Shown piece by piece: positions 4,501 through 16,868 of a stretch of DNA of 64,000 nt. Both the position numbers and the translations under genes were made by a program. The stretch covers positions 1 to 64,000 of IMG/VR virus record IMGVR_UViG_3300030202_002773. The stretch is one strand, 5' to 3'. The first letter of the stretch is position 1; every line of letters starts with the position of its first letter. Source of the stretch: a virus. The notes under the pieces were generated by a model. The model was not told where the DNA came from. It made no database searches and saw nothing but the letters and a program-made list of their open reading frames with translations.

Positions 4501-5871
4501 ACAGATCCTACTGCATCTAATTATAATCCGCTAGCAACTCAGGATGATGGCTCATGTGTATATAATAATTGTGGATGTACAGATGCTTTTGCTTATAATT
4601 GGGGAGTAAATTGTGCAGGTCAAGTTGTAGCATCGGGTACAACACCTCCACCATGTGATGATGGATGTTGTTTATATTGTGATGATCCTGCAATGACTTA
4701 TACTTCAGCAACTGTTGCAGCAACAACTACTTTAATTCCTTCTGGAAGTGGATTTTATTGTCAATCAAATTCAGACGGATGTATAAAACTTACTGTAAGT
4801 TCTACAACATGTACTGGGCAATGGGAACTTTTTTCATGTACTACATACTGTGGAATATCTCAATCTTATAACTATTGGATTACTCCTGGTAATTATGATT
4901 ATGATGTTGAATATTCATTTTGTAATTTACCTGCAGGATGTTATACATTTACTATATATGATTGTAATGGATGTGAATTGATATTTGATGTATGTGTTCC
5001 AAGTGTTGGAAATGTTTGTGGATGTACTGATCCAGCTGCTATTAATTATAATGCTGGTGCTATATATGATGATGGTTCATGTGAATATTGCGGATGTACA
5101 GATGAGAATGCAATTAATTATAATCCACAAGCAACTCAAAATTGTATACCTGATACTTGTGAATATCCGTCATTATTACCTCCGTGCATACCTCCAAATA
5201 TAGATCAAACTATTAGAAGACTTGAAACATGTATAGCAGAAAACGGATTTGATTATTACAATAAACTAGTTACAGGCCAAGCTGATGATTGTTCTATAAT
5301 GAATGTTTGGAAACTAATGTTAATGGCTTATTTATTAAAACGAAAAGGCTTAGACTGTATTTATAATTGTGCAGATGCAAATACTCCTAATCCTGCAGAT
5401 GTATATAAGTCTTGTGACGAGATTTGGGTTACTGGAGGACCTAGTACAGGATTAAATGATTCTGCTGTTACAGGAACAGGAGTTGGAACTACATCTACTG
5501 TAACTTTATTTGCAATAGGTGGAACTGGAGAATTAACTCCTGGAGATGTAATAAAACACCACATTAGTGGAAATATTTGGATATTTTATGGACCAGGACA
5601 AAATGGTACGCCTACACCAGTTAGTGTGGCAGGACTAGATCCAGAGAATGCTTCTGGAAGTATATCAGGATATTGGGCTTGGTGTAATGATGCTATGAAA
5701 TATACATCAAATAATAATAATATTAATTATATAGATAATTTTATTACCTTTGCAAATAAGTTTTGTAGAGACTGTGGTAATGATCCAAGAGGATTAACTG
5801 GTAGCGCATCAAATTTAAATATTCCAATAATTCAGCAAGGAATAGATGGAATAGAAGATATAGAAATATAA
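1528..5871 (+). CDS. 1447-aa Cys-rich virion protein with GCTD..NY..A..DDGSC repeats and ring-protein-like helical C-terminus
   Basis: Acidic N-terminus, Ser/Thr/Gly beta-rich modules, ~7 GC(T)D repeats, C-terminal helical domain (CIAENGFDYYNKLVTG...WKLMLMAYLLKR...FANKFCRDC). Confidence 0.6.
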   Translation: MAPDDYEYDDTPEEEEGSSEDLYRHDSDVEDTSEDIDYSDVIEVEPEQSSDIIQTIYEGKPTQANKAKGTPAPRHNIIKAEAIYGSGQSSGSTVVTINIKPTGAGPQWDFVVNLTDVTSGTYAAQPDQVDNNTTLNHIQLSYYTVSGGASSPACQVGAHTRNYEATFNSGHVEDFSILVPGYYNSVGYYFSQYTFIGNTTNEVYPCADPNPDFRFHVGRVWSTVNAVSGNLLELTQIDVIDDPSNLWTNGASLVQFSSGKPVEFTLMGNGGIGSDNFYLANVNGGGTASTYNVDPNQFLRQKVRSIVAIIDDGIHPAAPTAFAGFNTIPNSGLNWSEVEYGFGPNQWFTNYNVGGNFPFVSFIEYAEHLPDCDPTTFAIDACLDVNSMSYYGYTDNDCTGTTIASNILANPSLAVWTQPAGCCPDCINPLHRSDPNTYSPLPLMISAESVNPTTPAGSDGYINITVLDGGFTPAGQPMGFITGVANYTYVLRNQDPTDDMMSQTAGKAVSSGAVSSTGFTFGHSVAATNNNGGLIQTGAAGTTTITTSAAQGYVPGGSDIGTGAISEGLKAGTYDVFVFDSSTTVCLARTTVNLQDPSPVAGCTDSNALNFNSLATVANNTTCHYCDASTGELVDGNTPAVIVAPINTVSGSPFNILTYPTHTTATNTVVDISGLSPTTQFQAYINDVVSASGAQNANYIVSLHKWTTQSSSGSYAASSTIGTITSNTGSGWNVTLSNSTLGAGLTYGYYSIKISISDPDATVEIEQCYEIIDFIIPVPACVDAGVATAQDGVIVSDANLYFHDQTICNLGSNTCCNVVHFTANHINDYCSVIKYKPTITCPLATYYHEITLQYYDNGSWVDVPGTTLDFGNINNSSITYPNTWTPGFIFTFNHFVINGSGGYRVKWTSIIPNNSACTLYSNAEQVTFGVYGCTDSSVDQNGNQALNYNPLATCPEACVWCIYGCTTPGYSNYDPNATCDDGSCIGNVYGCTDPTASNYNPLATQDDGSCVYNNCGCTDAFAYNWGVNCAGQVVASGTTPPPCDDGCCLYCDDPAMTYTSATVAATTTLIPSGSGFYCQSNSDGCIKLTVSSTTCTGQWELFSCTTYCGISQSYNYWITPGNYDYDVEYSFCNLPAGCYTFTIYDCNGCELIFDVCVPSVGNVCGCTDPAAINYNAGAIYDDGSCEYCGCTDENAINYNPQATQNCIPDTCEYPSLLPPCIPPNIDQTIRRLETCIAENGFDYYNKLVTGQADDCSIMNVWKLMLMAYLLKRKGLDCIYNCADANTPNPADVYKSCDEIWVTGGPSTGLNDSAVTGTGVGTTSTVTLFAIGGTGELTPGDVIKHHISGNIWIFYGPGQNGTPTPVSVAGLDPENASGSISGYWAWCNDAMKYTSNNNNINYIDNFITFANKFCRDCGNDPRGLTGSASNLNIPIIQQGIDGIEDIEI
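5723..5753 (+). promoter_or_regulatory. possible Bacteroidota sigma-A-type promoter inside the 3' end of the 1447-aa gene
   Basis: TACCTTTGC (TAnnTTTG -7 box) at 5745-5753, ~130 nt upstream of the 5884 start; only a weak TTA at the -33 position. Confidence 0.3.
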
Positions 5872-5883
5872 AAAAATAAAAAA

Positions 5884-7365
5884 ATGGCAAAATTAACCGA
5901 CTTAACAACGTTAGCAAAAACAAGTGTAGGAAATAATGATTATTTTCTAGTAACTAATAGTAGCACAGGATCATCTAAAAGACTTTCAGTAGCTTCTTTA
6001 TTTCCTGCAGTTTCAACAGCAGGTACTAGTAGTGAGACACTTTATAATAGTGCAACGTTAACAAATAAAAATCAAATAGTTTTTAAAGGAATAAAAAGTG
6101 GAGATACAGGATTATTAACTGTAGCTACTACTTCTAGTAATATAGTATTAACAGCTTTAGAAGCTGGGATAGATCTTAGTTTATGTAACAACGTAACTTC
6201 AGGATTTTTAACTTCTGTAGATTTTACTGGTGCAGCAACTGGAGAATGTGGTGTAACAAACGGAGGTACAGGGTTATCTACTATAGCTAAAGGCGCAATG
6301 CTTTATGCTAGTGCAACTGATACAATAACAGCTACTTCAGCAATGTCTACAAACGGGCAATTACTTATAGGTAATGCTACTACAGGAGTACCTTCTTTAG
6401 CAACACTTACTGCAGGAACTAATATAACAATTACTAATACTGCAGGAGCTATTTCTATAGCAGCTAGTTTATCTACTCTTGCAGGAATATTAGATATGGC
6501 TAATAATAATATAGATTTAGGTACTGCATATATAAGTGCTGACGGATCTACTAGTCAAGGTATAAGAGTAACTGGAGCTAATACTTATATAGGAGCATCA
6601 GGATCTTATTTTAATAACGACATATTAAATATAGGAGGTGGAGGTATTGAATTTTCTGATGCTGCAACTATAAATCCTACAGCTCAAACATCTAGTACTG
6701 CAGGAAAAGCATTAACAATTCAAAGTGGAAATAGTGCATCAGCTGCAGCAGGAGCTTTAAATATAACTGGTGGTACTGCATCAGGAAGTGGAGCTGGAGG
6801 AACAATTACTTTAACAGCAGGTAGAGATACTTCTGGAAGTTCAGACGGATCAATTATTATGAAGACTTATACAGGAGGTACAGCAACTGCAGCTTTAACT
6901 ATAGATCCAGAAGGACAAGACCTAACAGTTAATACTGGAGATGTAATTATGTCAACTGGAAATGTATATATGAGAAATTCATCTAATCCAGATGTAATTA
7001 AATATCAAGGAACTCAAGCAACTACAGATGATGGTACTGCAGTAGTAACAGCAGCTAATATATTAACAGGTATAATACAATGTACTCCAACAGGAGATAG
7101 ATCTAAAGCTACAGATACAGCATCTAATTTAATATCAGGATTAAGTTTAAATGCAGATGGTGATGCATTTGATTTTAGTTTGATTAGTTTAGCTACAGAT
7201 GGTACATCTGATATTACTCTTACAGCGGGAACAAGTGTAACACTTGTAGGTAATATGAAAGTAAAATCACAAGATAATGCTGATGATGCAGGATATGCAG
7301 GTGTAGGAAGATTTAGAATTGCAAGAACAGGTGGTAGTGCTGTAACAATGTTTAGAATAGGATAA
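5884..7365 (+). CDS. tail fibre/spike-like protein
   Basis: N-terminal KLTDLTTL...NDYFLV...SKRLSV fibre-attachment-type motif, NGGTG and GQLLIGN fibre motifs, Gly/Thr/Ala-rich LTIQSG/LNITGG/ITLTAG repeats. Confidence 0.7.
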   Translation: MAKLTDLTTLAKTSVGNNDYFLVTNSSTGSSKRLSVASLFPAVSTAGTSSETLYNSATLTNKNQIVFKGIKSGDTGLLTVATTSSNIVLTALEAGIDLSLCNNVTSGFLTSVDFTGAATGECGVTNGGTGLSTIAKGAMLYASATDTITATSAMSTNGQLLIGNATTGVPSLATLTAGTNITITNTAGAISIAASLSTLAGILDMANNNIDLGTAYISADGSTSQGIRVTGANTYIGASGSYFNNDILNIGGGGIEFSDAATINPTAQTSSTAGKALTIQSGNSASAAAGALNITGGTASGSGAGGTITLTAGRDTSGSSDGSIIMKTYTGGTATAALTIDPEGQDLTVNTGDVIMSTGNVYMRNSSNPDVIKYQGTQATTDDGTAVVTAANILTGIIQCTPTGDRSKATDTASNLISGLSLNADGDAFDFSLISLATDGTSDITLTAGTSVTLVGNMKVKSQDNADDAGYAGVGRFRIARTGGSAVTMFRIG

Positions 7366-7394
7366 AATTAATAATAACAAAAACAATAGACAAA

Positions 7395-7808
7395 ATGACA
7401 ACAATTAATGCAACAAAAGCAGAATTTGTAAATTTAATCAATGGATTATTTCAAGTTCAAGAATTAAAAGGTAAAAAATTTGGATTAGTAATAAGTAAAA
7501 ATATTGCTACTTTAAAAAAAGAATTACAACATCTGGAAGATTTAGGAAAACCTTCTGAAGAATTTATGGAATTAGCAATGAAAGTTAATGAAATTTCTCA
7601 GTCAGATCCTGAAAATTCTAAAGAAAAAATAGACAAGTTAGAAAAAGAAAATGAAGAATTAGTAAAACTTAGAAGAGATCAAATGGACAATATAACAGAA
7701 CTTATGAAAGACAAAATGTCTATAGATCTTAAAATTATTTCTGAAGATATTTTACCAGATGACATTACTGCTAAACAAATTAATAATATTGAAAAAATAA
7801 TAAAATAA
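7395..7808 (+). CDS. helical protein, probable tail-fibre assembly chaperone
   Basis: 137 aa, charged and helical, directly after the fibre gene; function inferred from position. Confidence 0.4.
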   Translation: MTTINATKAEFVNLINGLFQVQELKGKKFGLVISKNIATLKKELQHLEDLGKPSEEFMELAMKVNEISQSDPENSKEKIDKLEKENEELVKLRRDQMDNITELMKDKMSIDLKIISEDILPDDITAKQINNIEKIIK

Positions 7809-8095
7809 TGGCAATAAGAACAGAACAAGATGCATTAATAGATGGTATAAGAACAAGTGTAGATAAAGGATTTGCTCCTCAAGGATTTGTAATGATTACA
7901 GGAACTGCAGCTCAATCAGTAGCTTCTGGAACATACTTTGCAGTACATTTCGTTACTGATTGTACTTTAACGGCATTTACAGCAACTAATTCAACTACAG
8001 TAACTGTTACACATAAAGCAGGATCAACTATATATGGTGACATTTTAACAATTACAGCTGGTAGTAGTGAAACATATATGTTATATAAAAACTAA
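7808..8095 (+). CDS. small beta-rich virion protein
   Basis: 95 aa, TAATG-coupled to the upstream gene; AGSTIYGDI...YMLY ending. Confidence 0.5.
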   Translation: MAIRTEQDALIDGIRTSVDKGFAPQGFVMITGTAAQSVASGTYFAVHFVTDCTLTAFTATNSTTVTVTHKAGSTIYGDILTITAGSSETYMLYKN

Positions 8096-8101
8096 TAAAA
8101 T

Positions 8102-8887
8102 ATGTTAGGATTAGGAATAAGTTTAAGTAGTAGTGGAACAGTATCTTCAGGAGGTATAGCTCCATCTGATATATCTGGACTAGACGCTTGGTTTAGAGTT
8201 AACAAAGGTATAGCTGGAGCGAGTAACACATCAGACGCTGGTAATATGGTTGACGGGGAAGATATTGCTTCTTGGGCAGATCAATCTGGAAATAATAGAC
8301 ATGCTTCTCAATCAACCGACTCTAAAAAACCACATTGGGAAACTGACGCGGCTGATTTTGGAGGGTTACATTGGCCAGACGATGTTGCAGACACTCATCT
8401 AAATTTAGCTTCTAATGTATCTATAAACGCTAATCAAGATTTTACTGTTATGGTAAGAATGAAATTTGCTAACTTTGATACAGCCCAAGGACTAGTAGCA
8501 TCTGGCCCTCAAGATGTTATTAAATGGACAACTAATAAAAGAGTAGCGGTTATACTAGGAGGGTCTGGTGCTACTGAATTTGAAGAAGCTTCAGATACAT
8601 TAGCTGCAGATACTTATTATATTCATACTCTTACTAGAAAAGATGGAAGTACAGGAAACTTAACGTATCATATACATGGAGGAACTTACAGTGATAAGTT
8701 TTGGGAAAATGACTTGTCTACTCGTCAAGATGCAGATGCTTTTTTTATGAACAATATAGGTTGTGCTGCAGACGGAGTCTTACCAGTAGACGGTGTAATT
8801 AAAGATGTTATATTTTGGAAAGGAACAGCTTTAAGTGACTCAGAAAGAAATGATATGTATACATATATAAATGGACAAGCATATTAA
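8102..8887 (+). CDS. concanavalin A/LamG-like lectin-domain virion protein
   Basis: MLGLGISL start, LDAWF, WADQSGNNRHASQ, DFTVMV, GVIKDVIFW...ALSDSERNDMYTY are LamG-like phage lectin motifs. Confidence 0.7.
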   Translation: MLGLGISLSSSGTVSSGGIAPSDISGLDAWFRVNKGIAGASNTSDAGNMVDGEDIASWADQSGNNRHASQSTDSKKPHWETDAADFGGLHWPDDVADTHLNLASNVSINANQDFTVMVRMKFANFDTAQGLVASGPQDVIKWTTNKRVAVILGGSGATEFEEASDTLAADTYYIHTLTRKDGSTGNLTYHIHGGTYSDKFWENDLSTRQDADAFFMNNIGCAADGVLPVDGVIKDVIFWKGTALSDSERNDMYTYINGQAY

Positions 8888-8912
8888 TAATTAATAATTA
8901 AAATTAAAAATA

Positions 8913-9083
8913 ATGAATTGGATAAATGGTTTTAAAGCTACAAATAAAAAAGAAAAATATAAATTAGAATTTAGAATTGGTACTTTTACATTACTAGAAA
9001 TTAAACTTTGCGTATGCGAAAAAAAATCTTGTGAATGTTCTAGATTTAGATTTATGATTTGTAACTTAGGATTTGAATTCTAG
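8913..9083 (+). CDS. 56-aa small Cys-containing protein (absent from ORF track)
   Basis: MNWINGFKATNKKEKYKLEFRIGTFTLLEIKLCVCEKKSCECSRFRFMICNLGFEF*; A-rich start context; fills the gap and ends 1 nt before the next ATG. Confidence 0.7.
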   Translation: MNWINGFKATNKKEKYKLEFRIGTFTLLEIKLCVCEKKSCECSRFRFMICNLGFEF

Positions 9084-9084
9084 T

Positions 9085-9294
9085 ATGCCTATTACTAATA
9101 AGCAAATACATGACGAATTAAAAGATCTTAAAGAAGACGTAAGATTTATTAAAAAAAAGTTATTAGATCCAGATGATGGAACTATAGCTAGAGTAAATAG
9201 AAATACAGATTTTAGAAAATCAACAACAAAAGTATTGTGGTCTTTATGGATTGCAATCTTAGGAATAATTGGTAAAATAACATTTTGGAATTAA
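9085..9294 (+). CDS. small coiled-coil plus C-terminal TM protein (holin/XhlA-like)
   Basis: ATG at 9085 preferred over TTG at 9073; coiled coil IHDELKDLKEDV, TM VLWSLWIAILGIIG. Confidence 0.55.
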   Translation: MPITNKQIHDELKDLKEDVRFIKKKLLDPDDGTIARVNRNTDFRKSTTKVLWSLWIAILGIIGKITFWN

Positions 9295-9295
9295 T

Positions 9296-9619
9296 ATGGC
9301 AAAAGAATTAAACGAAGATACTACGTTTAAAATGAGTATCAAAACAATGGGTATGATAGCTGCTGGAATAGCAGTTGTTGTTGGAGGATGGTATTCACTC
9401 ATGTCTGAAATACAAGAAGCAAAAGAAAGTCCTGTACCTATAGATGTTAATATTATTAAAGAAGAAATTTTAAAAGAAATTCCAGAAGCTGAAATATCTA
9501 GGATGGAGTTTGATATGAAAGATCAAATGATTAGACAAACTATTATGACAACTCAATCAGACATAGAGGAAATGAAAAAGACTCTAGAAAAAATTGAAGA
9601 CAAACTCTACAACAGATGA
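9296..9619 (+). CDS. N-terminally membrane-anchored coiled-coil protein
   Basis: TM MGMIAAGIAVVVGGWYSLM then coiled coil ...DIEEMKKTLEKIEDKL; ATGA-coupled to the next gene. Confidence 0.6.
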   Translation: MAKELNEDTTFKMSIKTMGMIAAGIAVVVGGWYSLMSEIQEAKESPVPIDVNIIKEEILKEIPEAEISRMEFDMKDQMIRQTIMTTQSDIEEMKKTLEKIEDKLYNR

Positions 9620-9978
9620 AAAAACTAGACGTTACTTGGCAAATATTTACAATGTATATGTTAATTATAATATTTATGTTAGTAGCGGGAGTTTCTAAAG
9701 CGCAAATACAAGTATCTGTTTTTAACGCTAGTTGGAACGAAGCCAACAATATTGAGTGGGCTTCAGACTTAAAAGATGTTAAAACAACATCTTATATAGA
9801 TATAAGTAAAAATACAGAGCTACAAAAAAAACATAAAATAGCAGTTGTGCCTACAATTATAATATTCAAAGATGATGAAGAAGTTGCTAGGTTTCAAGCT
9901 GATCTTAGTTTTAAAATGATAGCAACAAGAGAAGAAGTACAAGAAGAAATAGATAACTTATTAATGAGTGATTTTTAA
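9616..9978 (+). CDS. exported thioredoxin-fold protein lacking CxxC
   Basis: Signal/TM ending SKAQ; FNASWNEAN replaces FxAxWCxxC; YIDISKNTELQKKHKIAVVPTIIIFKDDEEVARF matches the thioredoxin core with cis-Pro (VPT); no Cys at all. Confidence 0.7.
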   Translation: MKKLDVTWQIFTMYMLIIIFMLVAGVSKAQIQVSVFNASWNEANNIEWASDLKDVKTTSYIDISKNTELQKKHKIAVVPTIIIFKDDEEVARFQADLSFKMIATREEVQEEIDNLLMSDF

Positions 9979-12477
9979 ATGAAAAAAATATTATTATTAT
10001 TATTATTACCTATAATAACTTTTGCACAAAAAGAAGTTATTATACATTTAACAACAGATAATTATCCATCTGAAACAAGATGGGTATTACATGCTGATAG
10101 TTTTCAAGGAGCTATACTAGACGAAGTAGCTTACGGTCATTATGACTCTTCTAATACAGCGCATATGGATACAGTATATATTCCAGATAGTATAACTAAT
10201 ATATCTTGGGTTATATATGATCAATATGGGGATGGTATCCCTGGAGGTAGTTATTATGTATCTATATGTCAAGATACTATAGTAAGTTACCCAAATCCTA
10301 CATTTACAACAGGTTTAATACATAATAGACTTGTACCGCAATGTGCTGCTAATCCCCCTCCATGTGTACCAGCTACAGTTATAATTAACTTAGATCAATA
10401 TCAAGGTGAGACATCTTGGGACATAAAAGACACAAATGGGACAATTTATGCAGAATCAGTTACATATGCAGGTAACCCTGATTATGCTACTATTATAGTA
10501 CCTGTGTGTATACCTAAAGGAGAGTTAATATTTACAATATATGATAGTTACGGAGATGGTTTAAACGGAGCTTTATGGCAAGGTCAAGACGGTTCTTATT
10601 ATTTAAAACAATGTAATGACACATTAATATATGGAACTGATCCTGCCTTTGGTAACGACACGTCACATATATTTATATCTGATTCTTGTCCACCTATATT
10701 AGGGTGTACAGATAATGATTATATAGAATGGAATCCTTTTGCTGATGTAGATGATGGTAGTTGCCAAACGTTAAAAATATTTGGGTGTTTAGACACAACA
10801 ATGTACAACTACGATCCATTAGCTAACACTATGGAACTTATAGATACTTGTACATATACTTTAGTTTTACATGATTTAATGGGTAATGGATGGGTAGGCT
10901 CTCATTTAGTATTACATCATCCTGACACGTCATATCAATTTACACACACAGGAGGATTTGATGATATATACTATGTAGGGCTAACTGCTCCAGATCCTAT
11001 AATGTTTAAGTTTTTTATAAGTTCACAAGCTTCACTAACTACAATAGAATGTGGATTTACTTTTATTAATCCAGAAGGAGATACAATGATTAGTATACAG
11101 CCTCCATTTATACAACCTTTATTACCTTACAATTTAATAACAAATTGTGGTAATACATGTGAAGAAAAAGTATTTGGATGTACAGATGTATTAGCAATAA
11201 ATTATAATTCTTTAGCAAATACTGAAGATAACAGTTGTTATTATAATCCAGGGTGTATGAATTCTTCGTATTTGGAATATTATACACAGGGCTTTACGGC
11301 AGACTATGACGATGGGACTTGCTTAACAGTAGCCGTGTGGGGTTGTATTGATAGTACAGCCTTTAACTATGATCCATTAGCTAATATAAGTAATGGAGGT
11401 TGTTTACCTGTTATTACAGGATGTATGCAGCCACTTGCATTTAATTATAATCCTAATGCTAATACGGCAGATACGTGCATAGCTATAGTATATGGATGTA
11501 TGAGTAATATAGCAATTAACTATAATCCTCTAGCTAATACAGATGACGGATCATGTATAGGAGTATTTTACGGGTGTACAGATAGTACAATGTGGAATTA
11601 TATGCCTAGTGCTAATACTGACGATGGAAGCTGTTTACCATATATTTACGGATGTATGGATCCAACTATGTATAACTATAATCAATTAGCTAATACGGAT
11701 AATGGATCATGTATAGCATTTTTATATGGTTGTATGGATTCTACAATGTTTAATTATGATCCTTTAGCAAATACAGATAATAATACTTGTGTACCATTTA
11801 TATATGGATGTACAGATCCTTCAGCTTTAAACTATTGTGACACATGTAATACAGATGATTTTAGCTGCATATTACCTATATACGGGTGTACTGATAGCAC
11901 TATGTTTAATTTTAATTCTTTAGCCAATGTTGACAATAATTCTTGTATACCTTTTATCTATGGGTGCACTGACCCTAGTATGCTTAACTACAATGCCCAA
12001 GCTAATACAGAAGATTTCTCTTGTATTGCTTATATTTATGGTTGTACCGATAGTACTGCTATTAATTATGATTCAACAGCTAATACTGATAATGGTTCGT
12101 GCATGGCTATTGTTGAAGGATGTATGGATCAGTCTGCCTACAACTATAACGTTACGGCTAATGTTAATGACTCTTCTTCTTGCTTATATAGCGCTGCTTG
12201 TATCACTGGTCCTGGTAATCCTTACTGGCTTAATGACCCCTGCTATGCTTGGGTAATAGAAGTAGATGAATACTGCTGTGAAAATGAATGGGATACTATA
12301 TGTCAATCTACATATAATTATTGCGAAGGAACATGGACAGGACCATTACCAAAAAGAATTGATAAAGAATTACTAATGATTACAGATTTATTAGGCAGGC
12401 CAGCAAAACCAGGAAAAAATCAATTACTATTTTTTATATATAGTAATGGAACAGTAGAAAAGAAAATATCAAAATGA
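9979..12477 (+). CDS. secreted Cys-repeat adhesin-like protein with T9SS CTD-like C-terminus
   Basis: Signal peptide MKKILLLLLLPIITFA|Q; three D-x-(Y/M)-G-(D/N)-G beta-sandwich modules; 15 GC(T/M)D repeats; CC..WD..C module; tail ITDLLGRP...LFFIYSNGTVEKKISK. Confidence 0.7.
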   Translation: MKKILLLLLLPIITFAQKEVIIHLTTDNYPSETRWVLHADSFQGAILDEVAYGHYDSSNTAHMDTVYIPDSITNISWVIYDQYGDGIPGGSYYVSICQDTIVSYPNPTFTTGLIHNRLVPQCAANPPPCVPATVIINLDQYQGETSWDIKDTNGTIYAESVTYAGNPDYATIIVPVCIPKGELIFTIYDSYGDGLNGALWQGQDGSYYLKQCNDTLIYGTDPAFGNDTSHIFISDSCPPILGCTDNDYIEWNPFADVDDGSCQTLKIFGCLDTTMYNYDPLANTMELIDTCTYTLVLHDLMGNGWVGSHLVLHHPDTSYQFTHTGGFDDIYYVGLTAPDPIMFKFFISSQASLTTIECGFTFINPEGDTMISIQPPFIQPLLPYNLITNCGNTCEEKVFGCTDVLAINYNSLANTEDNSCYYNPGCMNSSYLEYYTQGFTADYDDGTCLTVAVWGCIDSTAFNYDPLANISNGGCLPVITGCMQPLAFNYNPNANTADTCIAIVYGCMSNIAINYNPLANTDDGSCIGVFYGCTDSTMWNYMPSANTDDGSCLPYIYGCMDPTMYNYNQLANTDNGSCIAFLYGCMDSTMFNYDPLANTDNNTCVPFIYGCTDPSALNYCDTCNTDDFSCILPIYGCTDSTMFNFNSLANVDNNSCIPFIYGCTDPSMLNYNAQANTEDFSCIAYIYGCTDSTAINYDSTANTDNGSCMAIVEGCMDQSAYNYNVTANVNDSSSCLYSAACITGPGNPYWLNDPCYAWVIEVDEYCCENEWDTICQSTYNYCEGTWTGPLPKRIDKELLMITDLLGRPAKPGKNQLLFFIYSNGTVEKKISK
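11173..12183 (+). repeat. tandem array of 13 ~26-aa (~78-nt) GC(T/M)D-x3-NY-x3-AN-x-D-x-G-SC repeats
   Basis: Visible in translation (YGCTDSTMWNYMPSANTDDGSC, YGCMDPTMYNYNQLANTDNGSC, ...); nucleotide copies are diverged. Confidence 0.9.
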
Positions 12478-13538
12478 AAAAAATATTAATATTACTTTTA
12501 TTACCATTATTTAGTTTATCTCAAAATACTACTTTAGATATATTTAAATTTTCTACTGTGTATGGAGCTGTTAACGGAGGTACATCTATATCAGATATAG
12601 AAGCTTTTTCTATTACTAATGGACTACAAACTTCTACTATAGAAACACCTTTTGATTATTCTGTAACTGTAGGAATAAGAAAAATAGCTAGATTTGGATA
12701 TGAAAATAAAGCTAATACGTTTTATGATGGTACAGAATCTAATTATACAGATGCTGCTACAGTAGGTAAAGTTCAAGGTTTTGAATATTTATTTGAAGTA
12801 GATTATGCTAGACAACAAGGTATAGATTATATAGATCAACATCATTTTATTAGATACAGTTCTGACGATGATTGTGAAGGTCCTTATTGTGTAAGTCATT
12901 TAGCTGCAAAAGTAGAATATCTTAAAAATGGGTTTGCAGATATAGAGTATTTTGAACTGTCTGAAAGATATAGATACAAAAAAACTAAAGACTTATCTAT
13001 TAGTATAGGAGCTGTACATAGATTAGCAGAACCTTATGGATATGATCCATTAAATGAATGGATATTATCAAATGGTAATTTACATTATACATATTTAGCT
13101 ATACAAGAAGGATATACAGTTGATGTACATAATAGTGAGTATAGAGATCCTAATGGTAATATAGTAGCTAACAGTGCTGACGTTTGGAAAGAAGTTGTTA
13201 TACCACAAGTATTAGCAGATTATACTGTTAAAAAAAGAAATGAATTAAAAAACATTATACAACATTCTATAGTTGTTGGATTTGACTATTATAAATATAG
13301 TAAAAGTACATGGTTACACGCATGGGGAAATTTAATGCCATATCACTATAATGATGGTAATGAGTTTAGTTATCATAATTACATAGAAGATGATCAGTGG
13401 TATGATTATTCTGGTGGTGTAATATATGGTATTAAAATAAATAAACAATTAGGATATTTTGTAGAAGGCAAATACAATAAGTATTGGAATAGAGAGTGGT
13501 ATGATTTTAAATTTGGTATTAATTATATAATAAGATAA
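12474..13538 (+). CDS. putative outer-membrane beta-barrel protein
   Basis: Signal peptide MKKILILLLLPLFSLS|Q; amphipathic Tyr/Trp-rich strands; C-terminal WYDFKFGINYIIR resembles a BAM beta-signal. Confidence 0.6.
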   Translation: MKKILILLLLPLFSLSQNTTLDIFKFSTVYGAVNGGTSISDIEAFSITNGLQTSTIETPFDYSVTVGIRKIARFGYENKANTFYDGTESNYTDAATVGKVQGFEYLFEVDYARQQGIDYIDQHHFIRYSSDDDCEGPYCVSHLAAKVEYLKNGFADIEYFELSERYRYKKTKDLSISIGAVHRLAEPYGYDPLNEWILSNGNLHYTYLAIQEGYTVDVHNSEYRDPNGNIVANSADVWKEVVIPQVLADYTVKKRNELKNIIQHSIVVGFDYYKYSKSTWLHAWGNLMPYHYNDGNEFSYHNYIEDDQWYDYSGGVIYGIKINKQLGYFVEGKYNKYWNREWYDFKFGINYIIR

Positions 13539-13541
13539 ATT

Positions 13542-13934
13542 ATGAATATATTAGGAAAAATATTTAGCGGAGGAGCTAAAGAATTAGTAGAAGGTGTAGG
13601 TGGAGTTATAGATAATCTACACACATCTAAAGAAGAAAAATTAGAAGCAGAACAAAAAATAAAAGAACTTATAGCAAACTATGAAGTTCAAATGGAAAAA
13701 GAAATATCATCAAGATGGCAAGCTGATATGAAATCAGATTCTTGGCTAAGTAAAAATGTAAGACCATTAGTTTTAATCTTTTTAGTTATATCGACAGTAT
13801 TATTAATATTTATTGATGCTGGTGTAATTAACTTTGTAGTAGAAGCTAAATGGACTGATTTATTACAGTTAGTATTAATTACTGTAATAGGTGCTTACTT
13901 TGGTGGTAGATCATTAGAGAAAGCAAAAAAATAA
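13542..13934 (+). CDS. holin (GTA 3TM holin-like family)
   Basis: LHTSKEEK...RWQADMKSDSWLSKNVRP, two TM helices, AYFGGRSLEK. Confidence 0.8.
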   Translation: MNILGKIFSGGAKELVEGVGGVIDNLHTSKEEKLEAEQKIKELIANYEVQMEKEISSRWQADMKSDSWLSKNVRPLVLIFLVISTVLLIFIDAGVINFVVEAKWTDLLQLVLITVIGAYFGGRSLEKAKK

Positions 13935-13956
13935 TAACAAATAAAAATTAAATAAA

Positions 13957-14319
13957 ATGGCAACATTAACAGCAAAATTAACATTAACAAGCTCAAACGC
14001 TACAAGCGATGCTTTAAATCTTACGGTAACAGATACTTTAACAATAGGAGAGCCAGCGGTAAGTGTAGCTAGAATATCTCTAGTTGGAGATGCATCTGCT
14101 ACAGCACTTCTAACTGACAACGCAACAACAACATATGTATATTTAAAAAATACAGATGGCACAAACCATGTAAAGTATTTTAATGATACTGATGATGGTT
14201 TTGGTATTTTATGGCCAGGTGAATTTGCGTTCTTCGCTGTAATAGACAATGAAGGATTAAAAGTACAGGCTAACAATGCTGCATGTATTCTTGAATACGC
14301 GTATTGGACTAAAGCATAG
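13957..14319 (+). CDS. small beta-rich virion protein
   Basis: 120 aa; YVYLKNTD...LWPGEFAFF...LEYAYW pattern seen in small phage structural proteins. Confidence 0.5.
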   Translation: MATLTAKLTLTSSNATSDALNLTVTDTLTIGEPAVSVARISLVGDASATALLTDNATTTYVYLKNTDGTNHVKYFNDTDDGFGILWPGEFAFFAVIDNEGLKVQANNAACILEYAYWTKA

Positions 14320-14323
14320 TTAA

Positions 14324-14932
14324 ATGAAATATACTAGAGAACAAATACAGAATACTGTAGAAGGTTTAGGATATAAATATTTTACAGGAGATAACTATGA
14401 TGTAAATATCGTTGGTATTAGAAATTCTGATACTAATGGTAAAGTTACAAACAAGTTTGACGATATTATAACTATCTCATTTAAAGATGAAAATGGAGAA
14501 TGGCAATACAATGAGTATAGTTGTACTACTGATCCAGGAGATGATTGGATGGAAAATCCTTGGATAGATAAAATAGGTTGTGCGGTATTAAAACCTGGGC
14601 AATATAGAGGATCTCATAAACTTAGATTGCACAGTGGTAAATATTTAGCGTTAGGCCAAAAGAAAGATGTAACAGTTTATAGAGATAATAATAGAAACGA
14701 TAAGTATGAATTTGATGAATCATCTTGTGATACAGGTGTATTTGGTATAAATATACATAGAGCTACAGCTTTAGAAGGTAAAACTTCTACTTATGTAAAT
14801 AAGTGGTCAGCAGGATGTCAAGTAATTGCATCTAATGATGATTGGATGGAGTTTTTAGGAATATGCCAAGAAGCTAGAGAACATTGGGGTAACTCATTTT
14901 CATACACATTAATAGAAAGTAAAGATATATAA
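14324..14932 (+). CDS. putative endolysin with L,D-transpeptidase (YkuD)-like catalytic motif
   Basis: NIVGIR...FDD...TTDPG...LKPGQY...GINIH-x16-SAGCQV; near the holin; no signal peptide. Confidence 0.65.
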   Translation: MKYTREQIQNTVEGLGYKYFTGDNYDVNIVGIRNSDTNGKVTNKFDDIITISFKDENGEWQYNEYSCTTDPGDDWMENPWIDKIGCAVLKPGQYRGSHKLRLHSGKYLALGQKKDVTVYRDNNRNDKYEFDESSCDTGVFGINIHRATALEGKTSTYVNKWSAGCQVIASNDDWMEFLGICQEAREHWGNSFSYTLIESKDI

Positions 14933-14933
14933 A

Positions 14934-15803
14934 TTGAATTGGATAGGTCAACATATTGTAGATTTTATTGCGCGTTTTAGAAGTAGTGTATATTTTGAAA
15001 ATGTAGAAAATGGTTCTTCTGATACGGATAAATTTTTAATTCTTGGTAGTAGTGGCAAACTAAAGTATAGAACAGGAGCAGAAGTAAAAGCAGATATAGA
15101 AGCTGGTAGTGGTGATGGAGATATAACTGGTGTTGTTATAACTACTGACACTGGCGGAGGTAGTTCAGCTCAAGTTTTAACTGGATCTGCTGATTTTAGA
15201 TTATTAGGAAGTAATGGTGTTGGTATTACAAATAGTGGTGTGACAATAACTGCACGTGCTGAACCATCAGAAATAGATCATGATTCATTAGACAATTGGG
15301 ATGAAGCTAAACATTTTACACAAGCTGGTATTACAACTGTTGGAACTATTGGAACTGGTGTTTGGAATGGAACAAAAATCACTGATATATATACAAATAG
15401 TAGTGGAAAAAGATATGGTAACACGATAAAAATATTACCTTCAGACTTTATGATAAATGAAGACGCTGCGGTTCCTTTATCTTTTAAAGATGGTGGTAAC
15501 TCTGGTGTTCATATTAATGATACAGATAACGAAGCTCTTGCTTTTATAACTATACCTGAAGGAATGAAGGCTACCCACGTTGATGTTTACGCGACTCATA
15601 ATAGAACGCTTAAGGTTTGGGAGGTTGATTTAAATGCTAGCTTTGATTTTACAAGCACAACTAAAGGAACTGGAGTTTGTAATACTCAATTAGATATAAC
15701 AGACGTAAACTCTACAGCAACTAATTATTTAGCAATACAAATAGCGTTATCACAAACTACACAAAGAATATGGGGTGGAGTAGTTACTATAGCAGCACAA
15801 TAA
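14934..15803 (+). CDS. tail fibre-like virion protein (TTG start)
   Basis: WIGQHI..FIARFR N-terminus, GDGDITGV, ITTVGTIGTGVWNGT fibre motifs. Confidence 0.55.
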   Translation: MNWIGQHIVDFIARFRSSVYFENVENGSSDTDKFLILGSSGKLKYRTGAEVKADIEAGSGDGDITGVVITTDTGGGSSAQVLTGSADFRLLGSNGVGITNSGVTITARAEPSEIDHDSLDNWDEAKHFTQAGITTVGTIGTGVWNGTKITDIYTNSSGKRYGNTIKILPSDFMINEDAAVPLSFKDGGNSGVHINDTDNEALAFITIPEGMKATHVDVYATHNRTLKVWEVDLNASFDFTSTTKGTGVCNTQLDITDVNSTATNYLAIQIALSQTTQRIWGGVVTIAAQ

Positions 15804-15810
15804 TAAGAAT

Positions 15811-16158
15811 ATGGCATATACATATGAAAATATAAGTACAACAACGGTTTTAAGAAGTAAATCAGATTTATATAATAATCCTATAGTAACTATGAATATA
15901 TGTAATACTCATTCTTCTGATTCTACTATAAGTTTATATTTAAAAACAATTTATGGTAATGCTATAAGTGGATATGAAAAAGAAGAAGAAACTAAAACAA
16001 CAGAAACTTATTATATGATTAAAAATCTTATAATACCTTCTGGAACAACACTTCAACTAGATGGAAGTGATATATATATAGACTATAATAATGTAATATA
16101 TGATCTCTATGTAGAGGTTGATAATACAATAGATGTAATAATAAATAGTAAAAAATGA
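15811..16158 (+). CDS. small structural/hypothetical protein
   Basis: 115 aa; ICNTH...ISLYL...YYMIKNLIIPSGTTLQL; ATGA-coupled to the next gene. Confidence 0.5.
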   Translation: MAYTYENISTTTVLRSKSDLYNNPIVTMNICNTHSSDSTISLYLKTIYGNAISGYEKEEETKTTETYYMIKNLIIPSGTTLQLDGSDIYIDYNNVIYDLYVEVDNTIDVIINSKK

Positions 16159-16868
16159 CATTAAATGAAATAGCATATAATTTATTAAATCTAGTTAGAG
16201 GAGGTAAATCTAATCAAGATGAGAGTATATCACTTGATCAAATAAAATTCAATATTAAGCATTATAGAGCTATGTTTATTAGAAGAGATTTTGCTAAAAA
16301 TGGATTTACTAGTAGACATATAGAACAAGATTTAGGATGTTTAGAATTAAAAAAAGTAGATCCAACTAGATGTTGTAGTCTACCATCTTCTTGTTCTGTA
16401 TATAGAACAATAGAACCTATTCCTAAAACAGTAAGACATAACTTTAAAGAATCTATAACTCATGTTGGAGATATAACAGGAACAGGAACTATTCCAATAG
16501 TACATTCTAATGTTATTAAATTTTTATCATATGATAAATATACTAATAAAAAATATAAAGCTTACATGATTGAAGATTATTTATATATTTATAATGCAGA
16601 CGGTTTAAAATTTATAAATGTTAGAGGTGTGTTTGAAGATCCAGAAGAAATAGCAAAATTTAAAGATTGTGGAGGATCAGACTGTTACGATGCAGATACA
16701 ATAGATTATCCTATTCCTATGGATATGGTACAAGCAATTAATAGTGGTATATTAGCAGGAGAATTAAGATTACTTGCTGGCACTCTTTCTGATACTTTAA
16801 ATGATAGAAGCCAAGATATTGAAACTAGAACTAATATAGGAGGAGGAGGTGGAGCTCCTAAAAAATAA
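16155..16868 (+). CDS. crAss-like tail ring protein
   Basis: MTLNEIAY...YRAMFIRRD...QDLGCLEL...RT..PIP...YLYI...VRGVFEDP; first gene of the conserved ring/IHF/tube/muzzle tail module. Confidence 0.7.
   Translation: MTLNEIAYNLLNLVRGGKSNQDESISLDQIKFNIKHYRAMFIRRDFAKNGFTSRHIEQDLGCLELKKVDPTRCCSLPSSCSVYRTIEPIPKTVRHNFKESITHVGDITGTGTIPIVHSNVIKFLSYDKYTNKKYKAYMIEDYLYIYNADGLKFINVRGVFEDPEEIAKFKDCGGSDCYDADTIDYPIPMDMVQAINSGILAGELRLLAGTLSDTLNDRSQDIETRTNIGGGGGAPKK

Follow-up and report, generated by a model that had tools for sequence, protein, structure and literature searches.

An apparently phage-only trio of envelope genes, possibly a spanin substitute, linked to a gene for a secreted protein with a host-type tag

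In the genome of an uncultured marine phage (IMG/VR record IMGVR_UViG_3300030202_002773), whose first 64,000 nucleotides are the window analysed here, four consecutive genes, A to D, form an envelope cassette composed of two linked modules. Genes A, B and D constitute a trio that, judged from sequence comparison, is confined to phages and stays intact in three divergent clades on unrelated backbones. Gene C encodes a cargo protein that ends in an apparent host-type sorting tag. Our preferred reading, tentative and held at somewhat less than an even chance, is that the trio substitutes for spanins and that C is exported via host sorting. The cassette proteins are probably destined for the inner membrane, periplasm and outer membrane of the host, and for the cell surface as well. 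The phage most likely infects a marine member of the Flavobacteriales with a small genome.

All four genes lie on the + strand (Table 1), and both the ORFs and the junction letters agree with the preliminary description of a tightly coupled cassette. A and B overlap by ATGA, as do C and D, and the TAA of B is followed directly by the ATG of C. One base separates the end of the upstream 73-aa gene from A, and three bases separate the stop of D from the start of the holin; from the 73-aa gene through A, B, C and D to the holin, every gap is <=3 bases or a 4-base overlap. No terminator-like site was found in 7300-16300. The cassette had been placed between two holin-like genes, which holds for the downstream gene (24.4 bits against PF11351 GTA_holin_3TM, with a cut-off of 24.8, besides its PHROG match) but not for the upstream one, a membrane protein for which no Pfam or PHROG family was found. 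Relatives of the latter occur in 20-21/80 near loci, mostly immediately upstream of A, making it a loosely linked accessory gene just 5' of the cassette. The wider surroundings are tail-fibre-like and structural genes. The export signals proposed for three of the genes are present as a sequence pattern: B, C and D each begin with a Lys-rich start, a hydrophobic run and a small-x-small motif ahead of Q, a pattern kept in 36/39 B, 59/64 C and 34/41 D relatives.

Table 1. Features of the cassette and its lysis-gene neighbours (window positions).
Feature	Position	Strand	Basis
73-aa protein, N-terminal charged helix and C-terminal membrane anchor	9073..9294	+	ORF
A, inner-membrane protein, 107 aa	9296..9619	+	ORF
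B, exported thioredoxin-fold protein, 120 aa	9616..9978	+	ORF and profile matches
C, secreted cargo, 832 aa, 47 Cys	9979..12477	+	ORF, Sec-type signal
C, two N-terminal 'YGDG' beta-sandwich domains	10024-10353 and 10354-10704	+	jackhmmer, AF2
C, ~12-15 Cys repeats, 26-residue period (G-C-x-D ... N-Y ... A-N-x-D ... C)	10699..12183	+	
C, conserved Cys-rich module (C-C-x-N-x-W-D-x-x-C)	12208..12324	+	64 C relatives carry the module
C, linker and ~40-residue C-terminal tag	12325..12474	+	tail alignment, cellular copies
D, outer-membrane beta-barrel, 354 aa	12474..13538	+	ORF, AF2, fold matches
Holin, 3 bases 3' of D	13542..13934	+	phrog_3427 E 1.7e-32
Endolysin-like protein	14324..14932	+	phrog_3000 E 2.4e-30; phrog_33083 'endolysin' E 3.2e-13

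D is accompanied by A in 74/80, by B in 71/80 and by C in 72/80 related viral loci, far above chance. The complete trio occurs in 70/80 loci near the window's clade; in two further clades, where D has only ~30-35% identity, the counts are 67/80 and 29/31. Misses fall mostly at contig ends. Counted singly, A is present beside D in 74/80, 67/80 and 29/31 loci of the three clades. When the 64 G000 proteins were followed in the surroundings of the P0166-clade loci (686 kb), A recurred in 67/80, B in 63/80 and D in 80/80, and no other G000 protein appeared in more than two of the 80. In the P0139 clade, frequent recurrence was limited to A, B, D and the holin. Within the window's clade, a C-type ORF accompanies the trio in 61/70 loci, C following B or D following C. 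The P0166 clade keeps A-B-D-holin with a C-type ORF in 0/67 trio loci, and the five P0139 loci examined carry after B a mini-C of 175-182 aa, consisting of a signal peptide, one YGDG domain and a short tail. In some loci unrelated genes, spanning as much as ~2 kb, lie between D and C. The preliminary description had taken independent occurrence of the genes as a sign against a common system; C does so in part relative to the trio, but the trio members do not part from one another.

D had been described as an outer-membrane protein, and its predicted fold bears this out. Its AF2 model (pLDDT 72) comprises about 12-14 strands with a helical insertion of ~75 residues (residues ~186-260). The best VIA match is KdgM (Z 14.6, rmsd 3.1, 170 aligned), followed by AaaA (Z 14.5), NanC (14.2) and NalP (13.8), and Foldseek returned 108 PDB matches at E <= 0.001, the top ones all outer-membrane barrels. 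No other cassette protein is as well conserved as D, for which identity across 80 loci is 63-87%, and conserved elements are predicted on both barrel faces. The C-terminal residue is Phe in 25/34 aligned relatives and Arg in the window's copy. About a third of D relatives (26/78) bear a lipobox-type signal, and such switching between signal peptide and lipobox is sensible only for an exported protein. A profile search scored 3672 protein clusters at E <= 0.001; the 120 listed among them are all named 'hypothetical protein' and have no Pfam family. Only 389 representatives were found among 1.84 billion, and 185,579 species genomes gave only six loci, all on MAG contigs of unrelated taxa. By these searches D is confined to phages and under strong constraint.

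A begins with a conserved 16-residue N-terminus and a single hydrophobic segment (about residues 17-37), from which a Pro-rich linker leads to a charged C-terminal region that is also conserved. A contains no cysteine, E4, S14, T17 and W32 are nearly or fully invariant across clades, and no PDB or Pfam relative was found. The conserved N-terminus hints at a partner in the cell or membrane, for example the holin. B was correctly read as a Cys-less thioredoxin. Its family profile matched 190 PDB thioredoxin-type chains (best E 1.2e-10), and B itself scored 22.6 bits against PF00085, slightly below the 23.5 cut-off. W-N replaces the W-C-x-x-C redox motif, the cis-Pro (P-T) is retained, CxxC occurs in 0/39 aligned relatives, and W40, N41, P79 and T80 are invariant among them. 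By its sequence B is a periplasmic thioredoxin fold seemingly incapable of redox chemistry. Comparable thioredoxin folds lacking redox cysteines include b and b' of protein disulfide isomerase, which have likewise lost CxxC and kept the cis-Pro; B differs in being stand-alone, exported and phage-only.

C, with its Sec-type signal and Cys-repeat array, conforms to the secreted Cys-repeat protein described earlier, and the window's copy has no Pfam, NCBIfam or PDB sequence match. Its YGDG domains, with a degenerate third copy near residues 290-400, gave 93 domain hits in related loci (jackhmmer). The AF2 model of the domain (pLDDT 93) has eight strands; C2/PLAT-like and Ca-dependent carbohydrate-binding sandwiches resemble it only weakly, with Z no higher than 6.4. 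Cellular YGDG relatives are N-terminal domains of Bacteroidota type IX secretion system (T9SS) cargo, and 10/15 such proteins have PF18962 cargo status. The Cys repeat, with 12 strict matches spaced mainly by 26 residues, recurs in a signal-less, fibre-like protein of 1447 aa at 1528-5871. The N-terminal domains of C relatives vary (MAM in 9/36), and the Cys-rich module stands before the tail in all of them. C is a variable adhesin-like protein built of host-type parts.

The tail of C relatives carries the motifs T-D-L-L-G-R and F-Y-I-Y-x-D-G-T-V-E-K. Among 58 distinct tails, 52 are of this short kind and six are canonical PF18962 at the same position; the T9SS sorting domain PF18962 was detected there in 4/36 scanned relatives. 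The same tag terminates 97 ORFs in 72 cellular loci, and five marine Flavobacteriales MAGs hold 29-52 copies each on secreted proteins, together with 36-71 PF18962 matches apiece and, in 3/5, SprA. PF18962 and TIGR04183 recognised the tag in 0/42 phage tails and 0/20 cellular proteins, and profile-profile comparison with canonical CTDs from the same genomes gave it a probability of 7%; as a recognised T9SS domain the tag was rejected. Its T9SS dependence thus rests on positional swapping and cargo types. We consider the tag host-type by its distribution, and the route reading it probably the T9SS. The T9SS type A cargo that Bellas et al. 2020 (PMC7468147) describe in Cryophage resembles C: it too is secreted, variable and phage-encoded, starts with a Sec signal and carries a host sorting signal at its C-terminus, and it shares PF18962 with some C relatives. 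The tag of C, by contrast, escapes both CTD models at ~40 residues, C belongs to a conserved cassette of four genes that also encodes an outer-membrane barrel, and the Cryophage cargo are enzymes rather than repeat/adhesin-like proteins.

Linkage to lysis genes is one of the observations that suggest a lysis role for the trio. Counting only loci flanked by at least 3 kb on each side, a phrog_3427-type holin lies <=3 kb from the trio in 23/25 P0166-clade and 11/15 P0139-clade loci; PHROG scans gave the orders D-holin and D-A-B-small C-endolysin (phrog_894)-holin. In the window's clade this holds for only 12/48 loci, partly because C intervenes, and a holin occurs anywhere within +-8 kb in 34/80; this weak proximity counts against a lysis role. 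In addition, morons and exclusion genes of other phages, such as lambda bor and lom, are also linked to lysis genes, which weakens the argument from linkage. The reported lack of a lipoprotein o-spanin extends from the region to the whole 81,845-base genome, where an all-frame lipobox scan, a heuristic that caught the lipobox form of D in 5/6 control loci and missed one, yielded only a 26-aa antisense ORF as candidate. Croceibacter and Bacteroides phages are among the spanin-less phages of Kongari et al. 2018 (PMC6139136), who also hold that an OMP could serve as o-spanin. Compared with two-component spanins as presented there (lambda Rz/Rz1), A and D likewise represent one protein for the inner and one for the outer membrane, their genes abut or overlap next to holin and endolysin, A has an N-terminal anchor and a helical periplasmic part, and D relatives are in part lipoproteins. 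They differ in that D is a 350-aa beta-barrel instead of a ~60-aa lipoprotein, a periplasmic thioredoxin-fold member is added, and A has a short cysteine-free periplasmic part and no sequence relation to spanins. Disruptin (phage phiKT gp28; bioRxiv 10.1101/515445) is likewise reported to be a spanin alternative in a spanin-less phage, but it is a single small cationic peptide and not three exported folded proteins.

In the putative model, the trio would perform the final step of lysis, in which the outer membrane is breached once the holin and endolysin encoded nearby have done their work. A would take the part of the inner-membrane spanin with its periplasmic helical tail, D would stand in place of the small spanin lipoprotein, and B would serve as a periplasmic adaptor or chaperone. 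We infer both the physical contact of A, B and D and any membrane-disrupting activity. C would enter the periplasm by its Sec signal, leave by the host's sorting route for like-tagged proteins, probably the T9SS, and late in infection would be present at the cell surface or released into the medium. Several observations oppose the spanin-substitute part. At only about 70 residues, the periplasmic part of A falls far short of the length of its counterpart in known i-spanins; the cytoplasmic N-terminus of A is strongly conserved, which pure membrane fusion would not need; and the need for a dead thioredoxin in a lysis device lacks an explanation. A also has no cysteine, while intermolecular disulfides are described as near-universal in two-component spanins (PMC6139136), which again argues against it.

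The preliminary description had offered surface remodelling or a lysis machine for the cassette as a whole. The evidence divides it: holin linkage and occurrence without a large Cys-repeat cargo in another clade favour lysis for A, B and D, and the host-type tag and adhesin-like domains favour surface export for C. That all four proteins serve to place C on the infected cell is somewhat unlikely. Here D would be a private outer-membrane anchor or shuttle for C, in the manner of PorP/SprF-like barrels with type B T9SS cargo, and B, tethered by A, would be the holdase of this 47-Cys protein. Once displayed or shed, C would either mask the receptor used by the phage, giving superinfection exclusion or shielding progeny from debris, or glue infected cells to particles. 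The position of C-type ORFs after B or before D in the window's clade and of mini-C after B fit this, as do the N-terminal variability of C, in the style of host-interaction genes, and the repeat shared with the fibre-like protein, as expected of a decoy of a virion binding module. Cryophage is a precedent for phage-encoded T9SS cargo (PMC7468147), and type B CTD cargo is reported to pair with a cognate PorP/SprF-like barrel, its surface-protein gene adjoining a ~300-350 aa barrel gene (Gorasia 2022, PMC9143113; PMC12618676). However, D falls outside PorP/SprF (no Pfam match at E <= 10; hhalign 33% over 19 columns), the C tail is not a type B CTD, and D is better conserved than C, can lie apart from it and persists in a clade without any cargo gene. 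The trio without C in the P0166 clade indicates a job independent of C, and its retention beside C relatives with a canonical CTD shows that D is not bound to the short tag.

Control of lysis timing, with a trans-envelope sensor running from D through B to A and A modulating the adjacent holin as an antiholin or an analogue of T4-type lysis inhibition, is improbable. It would suit linkage to the holin and not the endolysin, the short periplasmic part of A, the cross-clade conservation of its N-terminus and membrane segment, as expected for membrane-protein contact, and the conserved elements predicted on both faces of D. Nevertheless, no similarity to known antiholins was found, these to our knowledge require no outer-membrane barrel, and the absent outer-membrane lysis factor would stay unaccounted for. 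We give only a slim chance to a private secretion or folding aid. D would then serve as a pore or assembly factor, with B as chaperone, and Cys-rich phage proteins (C, perhaps also others) would be able to fold or to pass the outer membrane without host machinery. The 47 Cys of C, the likeness of B to the substrate-binding, non-catalytic domains of disulfide isomerases, and autotransporter translocator barrels and the FapF amyloid secretion channel among the top folds of D (Z 12.5-14.5) support it; yet 12-strand barrels match generically, KdgM, NanC and Tsx reaching similar scores, the trio exists without C, and the host sorting tag on C argues for host machinery. That ordinary virion or morphogenesis proteins were mistaken for exported ones is very unlikely: the cassette does lie amid tail-fibre-like and structural genes, but B, C and D have Sec-type signals with a conserved cleavage context, signal peptidase I and II signals replace one another in D, which has an outer-membrane barrel fold, and C bears a host secretion tag.

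In summary, on the preferred spanin-substitute reading, the A/B/D trio may represent an undescribed way of breaking the outer membrane.

The virus record comprises 81,845 bases, is 95% complete according to CheckV, and begins with the 64-kb window. Its cassette consists of four ORFs, A to D, all on the + strand and exactly at the positions given in the preliminary description, with the same junctions: ATGA between A and B, TAA-ATG between B and C, and ATGA between C and D. A single base separates A from the end of an upstream 73-aa gene, and 3 bases separate D from the start of the downstream gene. The latter encodes a holin (phrog_3427, E 1.7e-32), and an endolysin-like protein is also encoded downstream (phrog_3000, E 2.4e-30; phrog_33083 "endolysin", E 3.2e-13), the gene of which shows weak DNA similarity to crAss-like and Bacteroides phages. 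The upstream gene encodes a small tail-anchored membrane protein without a family match in Pfam or PHROG. The earlier placement of the cassette between two holin-like genes is thus half right: it holds for the downstream neighbor but not for the upstream one, which matches no family. No terminator-like site was found within 7300-16300, and a promoter scan with the sigma-70 consensus, which does not cover Bacteroidota promoters, yielded 51 sites against 58 expected. Directly downstream of the cassette, many loci carry one to three tandem copies of a Thr/Ser-rich family of about 120-150 aa starting with M-A-T-(T/L)-T-A, to which one ORF of the window and its paralogues in related loci belong; these proteins are probably structural.

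Coordinates of the cassette and of further features in the window and in loci of related genomes (L-numbers)
Feature	Location	Strand	Description
A	window 9296-9619	+	ORF
B	window 9616-9978	+	ORF
C	window 9979-12477	+	ORF, 832 aa
D	window 12474-13538	+	ORF, 354 aa
Short tail of C	window 12325-12474		same type as the cellular ~40-residue tag
mini-C	L245:7661-8209		between B and endolysin-holin pair
mini-C	L263:7656-8183		between B and endolysin-holin pair
mini-C	L268:7654-8181		between B and endolysin-holin pair
mini-C	L260:2555-3100		between B and endolysin-holin pair
mini-C	L261:4200-4745		between B and endolysin-holin pair
1447-aa protein	window 1528-5871	+	beside tail-fibre-like genes
Thr/Ser-rich protein	window 13957-14319		M-A-T-(T/L)-T-A family
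Small basic proteins	L024:9987-11893, L060:9734-11621, L066:9616-11914, L072:9758-12649		between B and C
Two-transmembrane protein	L011:16228-16440, L029:10488-10733, L245:5792-6004, and relatives		adjoins holin or cassette

Sequence analysis revealed that the signal peptides noted on B, C, and D, with a small-x-small cleavage context followed by Gln, are conserved in this context among relatives (36/39 for B, 59/64 for C, and 34/41 for D). Gln at position +1 after signal cleavage is a habit of Bacteroidota. The first 16 residues of A are conserved and lead into a single hydrophobic segment (about residues 17-37), which every aligned relative retains; a Pro-rich linker and a C-terminal region that is both charged and conserved follow, everything beyond the hydrophobic run being charged and hydrophilic. 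A has no relatives in Pfam or the PDB. B combines a signal peptide with a thioredoxin fold. Its single sequence matches PF00085 just below the cut-off, a profile of 39 relatives (A6) matched 190 thioredoxin-type chains of the PDB with a best E of 1.2e-10, and P79-T80 of the cis-Pro loop is invariant. In 39/39 aligned sequences the catalytic C-x-x-C is absent, with W-N-x-x-N or a similar motif instead (W-N in all 39), which bears out the initial view of B as a Cys-less thioredoxin.

The AF2 model of D is of moderate confidence (pLDDT 72). Its best fold matches are KdgM (Z 14.6), AaaA (14.5), NanC (14.2), and NalP (13.8), with autotransporter barrels at 13.6-14.5, and Foldseek returned 108 matches at E ≤ 0.001. 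As modelled, D is an outer-membrane β-barrel, in line with the original assignment: it has a signal peptide and a closed antiparallel barrel, and 25 of 34 relatives have the C-terminal aromatic residue of such proteins, Phe (the copy of the window ends in Arg). We rejected D as a PorP/SprF protein (PF11751), given no Pfam match at E ≤ 10 and an hhalign score of 33% over 19 columns between its profile A7 and nine PorP/SprF proteins from the tag-bearing MAGs described below. At 90% identity, 3672 clusters of D were found at E ≤ 0.001 among 8000 candidates examined; the 120 clusters among the matches listed have no Pfam family and are without exception named "hypothetical protein". D is narrow as well: a further search among 1.84 billion gave 389 representatives at E ≤ 0.001, and 6 loci were obtained from 185,579 species genomes, all on MAG contigs with unrelated taxon labels, which we read as mis-binned phage. 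Neither D, two of its distant representatives, nor A had a tblastn match in 50,697 GenBank phage records, and blastn of 9000-15000 gave short partial matches only.

The predicted co-occurrence of the four genes was found in related viruses. Of 137 viral stretches with D, 80 were kept, in which A, B, and C lie beside D in 74, 71, and 72 loci, respectively, in the order A-B-(insert)-C-D as in the window or D-A-B-(insert)-C. In some relatives the insert between B and C encodes five to seven small, very basic, Lys/Arg-rich proteins, some ending with R-R-R-W-K-C. We examined the trio A/B/D without cargo via two distant representatives of D, which defined the P0166 clade (80 loci) and the P0139 clade (31 loci); a third, P0195, had no viral locus. 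In the P0166 clade the order is A-B-D-holin, and A, B, and D occur together in 67 of the 80 loci, none of which (0/67) has a C-type ORF, the large Cys-repeat cargo. In the P0139 clade the order is D-A-B, and in the five loci read the next genes are mini-C, an endolysin (phrog_894), and a holin (phrog_3427). Mini-C, a short relative of C with 175-182 aa, consists of a signal peptide, one YGDG domain, and a short tail; flanked by B and the endolysin-holin pair, this minimal cargo therefore sits inside the lysis cassette. Where the flank was long enough, the trio had a holin no more than 3 kb away in 23/25 (P0166), 11/15 (P0139), and 12/48 loci (the window's own clade); in the last clade C lies in between. 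Of 64 proteins from G000, A, B, and D alone recur around the P0166 clade. Thus, the trio is a mobile module on unrelated backbones. A small two-transmembrane protein adjoins the holin or the cassette in 15/80, 5/80, and 10/31 loci of the three clades and is absent from the window's genome; an antiholin or an additional holin are possible identities.

According to Kongari et al. (2018, PMC6139136), no spanin was found in about 13% of genomes, those of Croceibacter and Bacteroides phages included, and an outer-membrane protein might act as o-spanin. Among the matches listed in a search of the literature from 2019 on, no barrel-type spanin appears, and the alternative presented is the disruptin. 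A lipobox scan of the whole 81,845-base genome in all frames gave one 26-aa antisense ORF and no plausible o-spanin; in six control loci where D has a lipobox, the scan caught it in five. The lack of a lipoprotein o-spanin, at first noted for the cassette region, hence holds, by this heuristic scan, for the entire genome. The 3-base spacing of D and holin corresponds to the adjacent or overlapping genes of spanins in lysis cassettes, and the topology inferred for A, with a single transmembrane segment near the N-terminus and the C-terminal domain in the periplasm, is that of an i-spanin. D of the window is a 354-aa barrel with a signal peptidase I signal rather than a small lipobox lipoprotein; in 26 of 78 relatives a lipobox followed by P-K-K-C-C takes the place of that signal. 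As to the intermolecular disulfide of spanins, A has zero cysteines, and the two in the window's mature D both belong to a variable loop missing from some relatives.

C contains 47 Cys. Its N-terminus has a Lys-rich start, a hydrophobic run, and T-F-A followed by Q, a Sec signal such as T9SS type A cargo has. Two clear YGDG domains and a degenerate third precede a central part in which a Cys repeat recurs about 12-15 times at a period of 26 residues, and the distal end is a conserved C-C-x-N-x-W-D-x-x-C module followed by the short tail. The confident AF2 model of the YGDG domain (pLDDT 93) gave generic sandwiches as best folds, with C2/PLAT-like and Ca-dependent CBM structures on top. We rejected YGDG as a known family: it has no Pfam family and a weak PDB sequence match (Lap adhesin repeat, E 0.015), and Z ≤ 6.4 is within the range of such common arrangements. 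An Atlas search with the N-terminus of C returned unnamed viral clusters only. In cells, relatives of YGDG form the N-terminal domains of secreted proteins; PF18962 is present in 10 of 15, most of which have a lysyl-oxidase domain as well. C is thus composed of host-type parts of secreted proteins. YGDG also occurs outside Bacteroidota, in Desulfocicer vacuolatum DSM 3385 (L302) and a Planctomycetaceae MAG (L303), within a subtilase-PKD protein that has the YGDG motif five times, so the domain is wider than T9SS cargo. Elsewhere in the window, a 1447-aa protein with an acidic N-terminus lacks a signal peptide. It has the Cys repeat of C (five strict copies, 62 Cys); this fibre-like protein, a probable virion fibre, and C thus share a binding-type module.

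Among 36 relatives of C, PF18962 (Por_Secre_tail), the T9SS C-terminal sorting domain of about 75 residues (CTD), scores above the cut-off in 4, where it occupies the position of the short tail, and below it in 1 more; an N-terminal MAM domain is present in 9. C of the window has neither, with no match to PF18962 or TIGR04183 even at E ≤ 10. The 58 distinct tails after the Cys-rich module comprise 52 short tails and 6 canonical CTDs, and PF18962 was found on 0/42 phage short tails. The short-tail pattern recurs in cellular genomes, in at least 631 stretches, 562 of them confirmed. Of 73 kept loci with this tag, 71 are labelled Flavobacteriales, Cryomorphaceae, Weeksellaceae, Polaribacter, or Bacteroidota, the remaining two being a mis-binned phage contig and a Comamonadaceae MAG. 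The 72 cellular loci (L089-L160) hold 97 ORFs of widely differing lengths, which end 6-12 residues past the motif; the majority of these ORFs have a typical signal peptide. LRR, Omp28, PHB esterase, M43, CotH, choice-of-anchor, SprB-repeat, or LamG domains were found in 20 tag-bearing ORFs, and neither PF18962 nor TIGR04183 matched any of these 20. Five marine Flavobacteriales MAGs (1.3-2.1 Mb) each contain 29-52 tag copies, on diverse secreted proteins, and 36-71 PF18962 matches. SprA (SprA_N) is present in 3 of these 5 and PorP_SprF in the 3 searched; tag sharing is the sole link by which we infer the host. The tag as a shortened type A CTD was rejected: hhalign gave 82% with phage tails, because a phage linker was shared between the compared sequences, and 7% with cellular tails vs the CTDs of the same genomes. 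These scores do not demonstrate a CTD in the tag; the tail swap and the cargo types suggest that it would use the T9SS.

We tentatively propose, at somewhat less than an even chance, that the lysis-linked trio would stand in for the spanin, with C as a cargo that takes host sorting. However, the periplasmic part of A is short and Cys-less, its cytoplasmic end is conserved, the role of B is unexplained, and holin linkage is looser in the window's own clade. A broader putative model, taken as a whole, we regard as less probable. In it, A/B/D would constitute a novel type of outer-membrane lysis system in phages of Bacteroidota, mobile among thousands of ocean phages, with the barrel replacing the lipoprotein o-spanin and the redox-dead thioredoxin as an obligatory third part; C would display an unmodelled sorting tag of about 40 residues, borne by dozens of secreted proteins in each genome of marine Flavobacteriales and copied by phages.

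Alternatively, the cassette might remodel the host surface, with D as the anchor for C. This is rather unlikely. In its favor, C accompanies D at most loci of the window's clade; against it, the P0166 clade keeps the trio with no such cargo. Control of lysis timing by the trio is improbable, although a holin adjoins D here. A private secretion or folding aid, against which the cargo-free loci speak, seems quite improbable. That the cassette proteins are virion parts is highly improbable, given the signal peptides on B, C, and D. The spanin-substitute reading ranks first.

Phage-encoded T9SS cargo has already been published (Bellas 2020, PMC7468147), whereas neither the trio nor the short tag turned up in the open-access literature searched. 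For the breach of the outer membrane by Bacteroidota phages, the trio is a tangible candidate, abundant and conserved, with which the idea of an outer-membrane protein as o-spanin becomes testable. Because thousands of marine viral sequences carry D, the trio would bear on how much of the mortality of ocean Flavobacteriia proceeds. The shared C-terminal tag, which may be an unmodelled sorting signal, points to such a signal in streamlined marine Flavobacteriales, offers a sequence-based route to link uncultured phages with hosts, and suggests that phages borrow host secretion addresses for variable surface proteins.
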